DNA of 62,727 nucleotides, filler included, from Hausera hauseri (GCA_046269625.1; 10 parts of 10 records of this genome joined end to end with filler, not necessarily neighbours in it), one strand, 5' to 3'. Positions 21,900 through 25,950 are shown, counted from the whole stretch's first letter. Notes: generated from the sequence alone by a model not told the origin. Numbers and translations: made by a program.

Positions 21900-24800
21900 A
21901 ACAGAAGCTGATGGCCTTCCAGAACAAATCATAACAAAAGGGTGAATTGGTTACTCAATTCGCTTTTGCATTAAAAAAACTTGCTAATAGTTATGTAAGC
22001 ACATTAAGGATAGCTAAGGCGGCAAAAGCAAAGACAGATGCAGAACGTGAAGCAGCAGAGAAGGCTAGCCCACCAGATTTAGATGTCATGATGACAACAC
22101 AGTTAATAAACGGTATATGGTCTAGAGATTTAGTTAAACAATTAATTCTGGCTCGACCAGACAATTTCGAGACTGCATTACAGTTTACGCAAAACTTATA
22201 AATGGCATTAGACAGATATGCCAAACAGAATGAAAGGTATAACCGAAACAATGATCGTGACAACCGAGACAGAAACCGAAATAATAGAAGATTCAACGAC
22301 AGTAATAAGGACCGAGGTTATGAGAATAGAGCTCAAAACACCTTCAATCACAACACGAGATATGATAATAGGTTATAATCCGAATAGAAATTAAAATAAT
22401 GACCGAAGTAACAAGAATCGATATATAGAAAATCGAAGTTTTAAAAATAGAAATAATGGAAATGATAAGCAGGATAGGCTGACTCAAAGCAAAACTATGG
22501 GTCGACCCAAATCGAAGACAAAGGATAGGTCGAGACGGAAACCTGATTTGTGATTCATGTGGTAAAGAAGGTCACATAGCTAGATCATGTCCTAATCCAC
22601 GGAGTGTATCATTTGCGGAGACTAATAAAGCTAGCATGAAAAAAGATAATTTGGAAGGAATCTACGGGAAACGAGATGACATAAGCATGATTATCGAGAT
22701 GCAAGACTTACGAAGATATGTAAGAAGTATGGGCGAATCTAATAATCCACAAGTAATCAAGGCTAGGAAGGAATACGAAGAGAAATTGCATCAAATGGAA
22801 GTTTATCATGAATTAAGAGAACCAACAACAGAATACGAAAAGGCTATAGCGCCCAAGAATACTAACATGTCCAGAAAGAAAAACCTGAATCCAGTGGCAA
22901 AGCCAACTACGCCTCCAAGCGTAGATTTGGATGCAGATAGTGAGGTTGTGCCTAAAGATAAGGGAAAAGCAACAGATGAGGTTGAAAGCGAATTCATCGA
23001 CCCACTGATACTTAAGATAACGAAAAATAGAGGTAGAAGCCCTTCTCTTAGGAGAAGGTCGAGAACTCGTTTACGATCACCTATCAAAACAATGTAGAAA
23101 AGGAGGAAGATTTCACCATCACTTTAAGAGATGAAACAGAATTGAATACTTTTGCTATAGCTCAAGACACCCCGGAAACAATAAATATCTCAAATATTGA
23201 TGAAATCAATGAAGTATGTCCGTTACGACCTAGTGAAGAGAAAGCAGAAGAAGAAAAACCGGTTAAGTTTGGAAAGATTAGAAAATCTTGGAAAAATGCG
23301 AATGAGCTAACAGAAATAAGAGACAGTTTGAACGATCCCGGAAGACTAAATGAGAGCTTACAAAAACTGCAGCAAATGAGTAAACAGTTTGACATTTCAG
23401 GCAAAGAACAACAATTCATAGAAAAGTTATATAAGAAGCTTAAAACCAGCCTCCAGAAAGGAGAAGAATGCATATCATACGAACTGCAAGAAGTGCCGCA
23501 AGAATTGATAAAAATTTGCAGAATAAGTTGGAACTGTGGATAACGAGTGATATCGATTTTACGAAAATATGGTGAATAAAAACGAATCATTTCTTGACCA
23601 AGTTGATCAAGCACAAGGATTGTTAGACACACTTAAAAACAACTCAAAACTAAAAAGCGTAAGGCGTAACTTGGAAGGATTGATGCATGAGATGGAAGAA
23701 GCAATAATTTCTTGTCTATATAAGAAGCCAGTATACGAACTGACTGATGCCGACCTAAAGATACTGAGTATAGACCAAACCGATATTTTCTTTCTGTTGG
23801 AAATGTGCAGCTTAATAAAGGATAAACCTCGGAAATACTCAGATTTAAAAACACGTATCGGAAGAGAAAATGGGATACGAGCCAAAATTAACGATTTAAG
23901 GATCGGTGTAGTCCACTCTGAAAACGTAGAAGTAAAGAGAATAATACGCGTTTGCCTTGTTGAGTTAGATGAATATAAGGAAGAATTCAACTACATGAAA
24001 CAGATCATAGAATTTGTACGAGGACCCGATCACAAACTAAAAGAAGCTTTTGAGGCTTTGGACCAAATTATATGCCCTAAATCAGAAAGACCTAAACAAT
24101 TGGAGAAGTGGATAGACTTGTTACCGTCTATAGCCGAAGTGATTAACAAACGACTAAGGGAATTTGCCGTGGTTGAACCTATAATGAAACACCAGTTAGA
24201 AGAAATGCTAATAGATATCGGTACGATGGAAGGTGAAGCGAAATTGCGAATTAAATTCGAATCATTTCGAGAACTTGAATTTATGAGCCAGGATCAAAAT
24301 CAAACAATACTAACAGAGATATATAATATGATAGAAGAAAAGGACTTCTACAGAAAAAGAAACAAGTTAAGTGAACTTCAGCGAAGTTTAGTAAACATCC
24401 ATTGGGAAGGAATACAGAACCTAATTCAGAAACCGTTAAAGGAAATCTCTGTACAGGAGATAGAAACATTAGACGTACGTAATGATCACCGAATTGCTCT
24501 CGCACAAACACTGCAATATATACAGAATCCAGTCGAATGGTCACCAGGCTTTGAACTACATTGCCACTCCAAACTAACGGAAATCAGAAATGATCCATAA
24601 CTGACCAGCGACGAAGCCACATTCATAAGTAGGCTGATGGATGCAATAGACCCATATTCAGAAGAGTTAAATCAAACGTACAAATTAATCTCACTATTAA
24701 CAGAAATGGCAGAAATTGACGAAGTAATAGCGAAAAGACTAACAAATCGAATACGTCTGATAAAAGAAACCCGGTTACGATCTGAGAAAAGACAACGTGA

Positions 24801-25950
24801 ATTAAACGAATTATTAAGAGAAACAGAAATTTATAAAAACAAGTATTCCCTTACGGAATTAGAAATGAACAACAAAATGGAATTTGTACAAAGATGGCAG
24901 AGAGATAGAATCGCGGAAGTGACTAATTATCAAGAAAAAGCCTTGATACAACCAGACGAAATGTGTCGATTAATAAAGCTGATACAACAAGCTTTCGGAA
25001 ACAGTGACGGATTTAGGGTATCCATCATGAAAACTATACAGCCCAATTAAGCGAATTACGCGAGAGTCCAGGTCGGACATGAGGCACTAATGAACTTCGA
25101 GTTACCTGACGCAGATAACGAAGCCGAATGGGATGAATATCTCCAAGGTCTAACCGAGCAAAGTCAAAGAACTCCAATACACATTTATGAATCACCAACT
25201 GGTACATAGAAAGCGAAATTCGATGTACAAATGTTACTGGATCCTACACTAGCTGAAAAGGAACTGAGTAATATGTTGAAAATAAACATAAGCGAAGATA
25301 AATTAAGGAAACTGATTCCAACCTTGACTAAACTATCCAGCGAGAATACCTCATACAGCGCTGTACTTAAACTCTTAATAAGAGAATACGCTAAACTATT
25401 GAAAAATAAACCGGAAACGGAAATTCAAGTGAAAGTATCGTCTGAAGAAGTGGATGACGAGGAATTTGAATGTACTACCTATACTACCGTTGGGGACATA
25501 AAACAACGGATAAGGGACAAAAACGGCAGAGAAGGAGTCAATTGCAGACTCTATTTCAGAGGTAGAATATTAGATGAGCTAGAATTCCTAATAGACGTAA
25601 GGATTATACCACTCGAAGAGAATCGGATAATAGCAATAATCACGAGCTAACAAACCAAAGATGAAGCCATGAGAAAGGCACATACAGAGCATTGTGTTGG
25701 AAAAATCATGGGGATTCAGGACGCAGCAATGTACTTTGAATACTTACATACGGATGAAGACAAACTGCAATATGATAAGAATTCGGTCCCGCTGAGTGAA
25801 ACCTTACCACCAGTAAAACCAAAGCGGCCATTCGGAAGACCAAGAAAAATAAAAGAAGTAGACTATAATGCAGATCTGATTAGGGAACTAAGACAACTAT
25901 CAGTACCCACTCCAAGTTCAGATAATGAAGAATTAATCGAGTTAATGAAA
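21900..25950 (+). mobile_element. Retroelement long ORF: Gag-CCHC, coiled region, ubiquitin-like domain, AT-hook (element A, decayed)
   Basis: QLINGIWSRDLVKQLILARPDNFETAL (capsid-like); CDSCGKEGHIARSC at about 22550; UBL TTVGDIKQRIRDK..RLYFRGRILDE at 25420-25640; KRPFGRPRK at about 25822. Confidence 0.75.

Follow-up and report, generated by a model that had tools for sequence, protein, structure and literature searches.

The question raised by a 4-kb contig of Hausera hauseri (GCA_046269625.1) is whether its decayed ORF belongs to a Gag-UBL-AT-hook family, as claimed in an earlier note on this DNA, or to a type of element that has been described before. The window, i.e., the whole stretch of DNA that was analyzed (62,727 nucleotides), consists of ten contigs with N-spacers between them, and, therefore, sequence flanking the ORF is uninformative about it. 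The ORF in question (element A) takes up the entire contig 21900-25950, the limits of which are both of its ends, and its proposed relative (element B) corresponds to the last contig, 58389-62727, on the minus strand. Each of the two contigs is ~4 kb long and terminates ahead of Pol.

Reading frame and domains of element A

The following features, all on the plus strand, were assigned to element A:

21900..25950, plus: element A, filling its contig; 5' half of a long ORF for Gag and accessory domains, decayed and cut off at either end
21902..22230, plus: probable C-terminal part of a Gag capsid with a ~20-residue insertion (colinearity with the Gag of element B)
22231..22548, plus: Arg/Asn-rich linker, putatively nucleocapsid-like (translation)
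22500-22514, plus: second GRP motif of element A, GRPKS (motif scan)
22549..22590, plus: CCHC zinc knuckle (Pfam zf-CCHC)
22591..25209, plus: charged, probably helical accessory region of ~870 codons (33% charged)
24688..25134, plus: conserved subdomain of this middle region, common to the protein P0003 (phmmer)
25210..25420, plus: three- to four-helix bundle preceding the ubiquitin-like domain (UBL; single-sequence model)
25423..25647, plus: UBL, internal, without a C-terminal di-Gly (Pfam ubiquitin)
25834..25848, plus: AT-hook-like basic motif GRPRK (motif scan)
25867..25950, plus: two short amphipathic N-motifs, reaching the contig end (motif scan)

Element A is a real decayed ORF. Its frame from 23551 to 25950 contains 4 stops in 800 codons compared to 24-100 in the five other frames, and its AT skew is uniform (0.28-0.34). 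The path followed by eye from 21902 is interrupted by seven internal stops and changes frame at least four times, and the gene is therefore dead. An LTR-like or long internal repeat was looked for in element A, and none was found.

The description of a decayed ORF with a CCHC knuckle holds, with the knuckle itself scoring above the Pfam cut-off (zf-CCHC, 21.9 bits versus 20.8, E 1.8e-4); a pattern scan of element A revealed no second knuckle. The Gag-like capsid end that the earlier note placed upstream is borne out only in part. The 5' part of Gag is missing from the contig, the remainder has no Pfam Gag match, and none of 380 protein database candidates matched it at E up to 10. However, it is colinear with the Pfam-confirmed Gag of element B over 105 columns if a gap of ~20 residues is permitted, in an alignment that was equaled by 65 of 5000 shuffles with cheap gap extension and by 442 of 5000 with standard gaps. 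Two other Gags from the window, used as controls with cheap gaps, were equaled by 2947/5000 and 4705/5000 shuffles. Since the cheap gap cost was picked post hoc, we rate this colinearity as moderate support, and the Gag identity of this part of element A is weakly indicated.

The charged region of about 800 residues noted previously was confirmed and slightly extended to the ~870 codons listed above. Matches above cut-off in Pfam, PHROG, and NCBIfam are absent from 22591-25209; 0 of 6 proteins matched PHROGs, nothing came close to the NCBIfam cut-off, and Pfam matches to MATH, BIR, or ankyrin are absent in the pieces of element A that were scanned. A search of 1.84 billion protein representatives with the 800-residue read-through yielded a sole relative, P0003 (unnamed, 150 aa; phmmer E 1.9e-15), which is identical to the translation of 24688-25134 at 50 of 149 positions (34%), and no relative extending beyond element A at its 3' end was found in the same set. 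The P0003 match shows that coding content is conserved in the middle region, and it gives no annotation. A profile built from element A and P0003 had no match outside element A, and P0003 itself yielded no usable match in the ESM Atlas.

Towards the 3' end, the helix bundle was modeled with a pLDDT of ~56-75 over residues 1-60, and its structural matches are generic helical ones (best Z 7.2); a structural search with a model of bundle and UBL together (pLDDT 55) gave no clear match. The UBL scores above the cut-off of Pfam ubiquitin (26.7 bits versus 25.4, E 4.8e-6, on 25408-25647; 25.0 bits within the whole 146-codon frame), and the stretch RLYFRGRIL, by which it had originally been recognized, lies inside this match (25546-25572). 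Furthermore, the domain matches Rad60-SLD (PF11976) at E 0.014, and its sequence matches in the PDB are mostly ubiquitins.

AT-hooks are built around an RGRP core with basic flanks. The GRP motifs that the earlier note called AT-hooks, GRPRK in element A and GRPKG in element B, are indeed present, and when the 800-aa frame of element A is shuffled, a GRPRK-pattern motif arises in 4 of 5000 cases; however, the core is FGRP in element A and KGRP with basic flanks in element B, element A contains a second GRP motif, and neither motif has a Pfam match, as judged on pieces of 22-23 aa, a size at which HMMER filters drop weak matches. The motif N(A/E)(D/E)(L/I)(I/V)R was recovered in element A as NADLIR (25867-25884), followed by a second N-motif, NEELIE, at 25924. 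By spacing, the N-motif stretch may correspond to the stretch that enters the Bcl-2-like domain of element B, a correspondence that is not significant. The contig ends 101 codons past the UBL, ~34 codons past GRPRK, and 28 codons past the start of the first N-motif, and no Bcl-2, Env, Pol, or LTR is visible within it before that point.

Element B and its relation to element A

Element B provides the second copy from which a family had been proposed, and its features are as follows:

61250..61825, minus: Gag (Pfam Retrotrans_gag above cut-off, E 6.2e-6, on 61416-61635)
61007..61048, minus: degenerate zinc knuckle (zf-CCHC, 20.4 bits, just below the cut-off of 20.8)
59915..60516, minus: helical stretch and UBL-like domain (the latter by eye only)
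59786..59800, minus: AT-hook-like motif GRPKG (motif scan)
59317..59595, minus: Bcl-2-like domain, BH3-BH1-BH2 span (Pfam Bcl-2, below cut-off)
58408..59220, minus: hydrophobic leader and start of a chuvirus/gB-type Env (Pfam), cut by the contig end

Gag and Env are established in element B, the latter through two matches to Pfam Monjiviricetes_fusion (E 2.7e-10 and 4.7e-5), and no Pol lies between them. A single open frame (58810-59772) contains the Bcl-2-like domain, the hydrophobic leader, and the Env start together. The Bcl-2-like domain was overlooked in the earlier note; the N-motif sits just 5' of it. Its match covers positions 11-100 of the 100-position profile with E 0.0011 and 19.9 bits versus a cut-off of 31.4. 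A single-sequence model of the region (pLDDT 37) found nothing at E up to 0.001 in the PDB or BFVD using Foldseek; Mcl-1 was its top match (E 0.46) and 26 of 41 among the matches listed are Bcl-2-family chains, a trend that is weak because the Bcl-2 family is abundant in the PDB. A sequence search of the PDB returned two chance matches only. The Bcl-2 identity of this domain is thus weakly indicated. An alternative assignment as DndB-like, suggested by ESM Atlas clusters, was rejected owing to low recognition. No relative of the frame spanning Bcl-2-like domain and Env was detected among 1959 longer and 972 near-length database candidates. A pattern search of GTDB genomes gave 61 matches, of which 0 were confirmed.

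In the UBL region of element B, the end of the helical stretch and the first UBL half are tandemly duplicated (60046-60370, period of 166 bp, ~86% identical) across a gap of 10 N, which represents either true tandem UBLs or two merged copies. The two UBL halves, separated by a frame change, have no match to Pfam ubiquitin. Hence, of the claim that element B repeats the modules of element A, the named motifs and their order stand, and the UBL is not matched by the ubiquitin family.

Common to elements A and B are the order of modules and the composition of synonymous sites. At fourfold sites, A/C/G/T amount to 0.44/0.13/0.18/0.25 in element A (409 sites) and 0.45/0.14/0.18/0.23 in element B (294 sites), unlike three other gypsy sets, for which A ranges from 0.29 to 0.33 and C from 0.21 to 0.24. 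In contrast to this agreement, the span from knuckle to UBL differs (~945 codons in element A, ~235 in element B), and bundle, UBL, hook, and middle region of the two elements did not align significantly in comparisons of single decayed sequences, a setting in which homology below ~20% identity can escape. blastn found nothing, and tblastx found the knuckle only (E 0.19). Seven local alignments gave p 0.10-0.61 (1000 shuffles), and four anchored or global comparisons gave p 0.07-0.69; the alignment from UBL to hook, which the earlier note had proposed as a check, was non-significant in every in-register comparison. In three hhalign comparisons, 44, 34, and 4 of 100 shuffles were as good, with the last value belonging to the Gag end, for which controls with an unrelated Gag performed equally (4/50 and 2/50). 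With cheap gaps, 736 of 2000 shuffles equaled the alignment from the UBL to the end and 299 of 2000 that of the bundle. In two of four settings, both of them end-free and global, helix plus UBL reached p 0.013-0.017; these scores were rejected as out of register, because the start of the bundle in element A was paired with the end of that in element B. Finally, when all ten contigs were translated in six frames and searched with nine modules of element A, the best non-self match was the knuckle (E 0.26). Alignment, therefore, does not support the claim that a family feature is proven by two divergent copies.

The other contigs of the window carry ordinary gypsy fragments with RT and integrase matches, as well as a mariner HTH and LINE-like RT. 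Four of them (2900-6900, plus; 7039-11000, minus; 41526-47157, plus; 47258-52800, minus) contain a family of small, C-rich Ty3/gypsy elements with RT and integrase matches and a mutual identity of 65-90% in pieces, which is unrelated to elements A and B. Just 5' of gypsy elements lie two decayed, host-like pieces without evident introns: one with HEAT repeats (1292-2700, plus), which we take to be GCN1-like, and one resembling MOR2-PAG1_N/furry (43765-44927, plus, E 3.6e-12). Either these are pseudogenes or the organism is intron-poor. An ABCB-type transporter gene, represented by its 3' end (26320-27215, minus), has three short GT-AG introns and adjoins mariner and LINE fragments. A further contig combines a weak ankyrin match (33847-34710, plus), an HTH_psq fragment (38101-38592, minus), presumably pogo-like, and an FHA fragment (39083-39406, minus), and the contig 53604-58287 is occupied entirely by ~150 copies of a 31-bp satellite. 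The contig preceding element A ends with a LINE-like RT fragment (21156-21799, plus; RVT_1, E 0.18) without a link to it.

Origin and proposed working of the elements

The architecture that had been put forward as a Gag-UBL-AT-hook family has already been published. According to PMC6431247, which cites Grohme 2018 and Jurka 2007, Burro/GYPSM1 are giant Ty3/gypsy elements of dugesiid planarians and the largest LTR retroelements described. In their ORF1 (4,873 aa), Gag precedes two or three CCHC knuckles, which are followed by an Smc-like region, in some cases MATH, a Ubi2/SUMO-like domain (PF11976), BCL-2, Env, and PR-RT, so that Env is placed between gag and pol in the same frame. Further Burro-type traits are PR-dUTPase-RT-RH-IN after Env, long LTRs, an RT within the Burro clade, and a length of >30 kb (PMC6431247). 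MATH, BIR, and ankyrin are optional or located elsewhere in the described copies, accessory ORFs exist that exchange domains with ORF1, and Dugesia japonica contains decayed Burro fragments with stops and frameshifts (PMC6431247). The module order is thus a real feature because it has been published for Burro, and not because elements A and B prove it. Furthermore, the Env table of PMC13524379 contains the 4-mer YQES of the Env of element B at 4 places, all of them (4/4) in Gag-Env-Pol elements of Schmidtea mediterranea, and the flanking cysteine pattern agrees with these elements by eye.

We consider it probable that element A derives from a divergent Burro-type Ty3/gypsy element and represents the 5' half of its ORF1, cut just before Bcl-2/Env. 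This reading draws on the fit to the published order, the PF11976 score, YQES, the fourfold sites, and the Gag colinearity. It is weakened by the null alignments between elements A and B for bundle, UBL, hook, and middle region, by the lack of a Pfam Gag in element A, by a single visible knuckle and no match to MATH, BIR, or ankyrin, by the lack of any matched Burro protein, by the absence of Bcl-2, Env, Pol, and LTR from element A, and by an hhalign result for Gag that equals its controls.

The same nulls lend themselves to the reading that element A stems from another LTR-retroelement lineage that captured a UBL independently, so that the order common with element B is partly convergence. 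The modules that cannot be aligned, a UBL that matches the ubiquitin family in element A and not in the halves of element B, middle regions with a roughly five-fold difference in length, and GRP motifs that are short, with two of them in element A, would all fit. Nevertheless, five features in equal order, an equal synonymous bias, and the colinear Gag end argue against it, as does the existence of a published family, Burro, with such an order (PMC6431247), and we regard it as unlikely. The missing Env could instead mean that element A is an Env-less or non-autonomous derivative of Burro, or an accessory ORF of its own, with its end shortly past the GRP motif. The reported domain swaps between accessory ORFs and ORF1 (PMC6431247) favor this, as does the lack of any sign of Env, but the frame of element A is open to the contig end, and truncation of the assembly therefore suffices to explain why Env is absent; such a derivative appears decidedly improbable. 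Even harder to credit is a host pseudogene for a protein combining a knuckle with a UBL, or a chimera produced by the assembly. Although the Gag part of element A has no Pfam match and its 5' part is joined to the long frame only via frame changes, the 800 codons contain no intron-like gaps, unlike the host gene with short GT-AG introns in the window, the A-rich skew is strong and uniform, and host protein matches are absent among the 1.84 billion representatives.

Returning to the Burro-type reading, we infer the functions of the domains of elements A and B from what is generally known of their families. Element A would be a dead fragment of a single giant ORF1 encoding a Gag-accessory-Env-Pol polyprotein, and element B would belong to another, distantly related subfamily in which the middle region is shorter. 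Given that it ends 28 codons past the start of the N-motif, element A probably halts, as judged by spacing, at the threshold of Bcl-2; Bcl-2, Env, and Pol would follow past its contig end, and Pol would follow the Env of element B. In an intact copy, a protease would cut the polyprotein into capsid, nucleocapsid, accessory domains, Env, and Pol, with Gag and knuckle packaging the RNA. Capture may account for the host-like accessory domains, namely the helical spacer, the internal UBL, and the Bcl-2-like domain. Since the UBL is internal and has no free di-Gly end, it would bind to the ubiquitin-proteasome machinery rather than act as a conjugated tag. The Bcl-2-like domain might delay the death of the producing cell, Env would permit spread from cell to cell, and the GRP motif could act as a tether to AT-rich DNA or chromatin, or as a nuclear signal.

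Under a more far-reaching reading, possible but doubtful, elements A and B would be Burro-type proviruses that branch off deeply and whose host may lie outside the dugesiid planarians. They would reveal a conserved bundle-UBL-AT-hook-Bcl-2 cassette before Env, in which the AT-hook would be an undescribed chromatin tether to AT-rich DNA; the cassette would then be old, its order kept and its pairwise likeness lost. If true, two copies this divergent would mean that the arrangement of UBL, Bcl-2, and Env is old and under selective maintenance; they would also draw attention to a short DNA-binding motif of the sort that may escape HHpred-style annotation. Elements A and B are dead fragments, and intact published copies would show more. 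Most likely, element A is a broken piece of a Burro-type element, and its odd assortment of host-like, captured domains is genuine but largely known; manipulation of host apoptosis and ubiquitination by Burro has been put forward as a hypothesis (PMC6431247).

Comparison with known elements

Gag-Env-Pol elements with a gB-type Env have been reported from nematodes, bryozoans, and flatworms (PMC13524379). Among them, the platyhelminth elements Smed_errantivirus_1-6 carry an HSV/gB-type Env, and element B likewise has Gag and then a gB/chuvirus-type Env with no Pol in between. However, Bcl, ubiquitin, AT-hook, and Burro do not occur in the main text of PMC13524379 as far as it was accessible, and element A has no Env in view. 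These Schmidtea elements may be Burro itself. The Env class of element B equals that of mosquito BEL/Pao elements with a chuviral glycoprotein (PMC7642597; PMC13524379; both in part), but the latter are not Ty3/gypsy, and element B has Retrotrans_gag followed by UBL-like and Bcl-2-like domains before Env. In the accessible parts of two further papers, Burro is only mentioned (PMC11410931) and AT-hooks are those of host LEDGF (PMC5053271).

Elements A and B were set beside Burro by means of its published description, and no Burro protein was among the matches of any database search with either element. Both differ from the description in having one visible knuckle each instead of two or three, and in having no MATH, BIR, or ankyrin match in the pieces scanned. 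Furthermore, the AT-hook-like motif is unmentioned in PMC6431247 ("hook", 0 occurrences), and titles and abstract starts contained no report of an AT-hook in Burro or a gypsy Gag polyprotein; Grohme 2018 may list further motifs. Located between UBL and Bcl-2, the putative AT-hook, indicated at the level of motifs only, is the sole feature that we did not find in print, and the GRP motif may well be present, unremarked, in published Burro sequences.

The likenesses lie in the order of the domains. In element A, the long charged region after the probable Gag corresponds by description to the Smc-like region, and the UBL lies 3' of a helical region and matches, at E 0.014, PF11976, to which the Burro domain is assigned; in element B, Gag is followed by a Bcl-2-like domain in frame with Env without an intervening Pol. 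The earlier note's pointer to Burro-type elements was therefore right, and on firmer ground than it knew: with the Bcl-2-like domain counted, the order of element B fits that described for Burro ORF1 throughout, and element A fits it as far as its contig goes.
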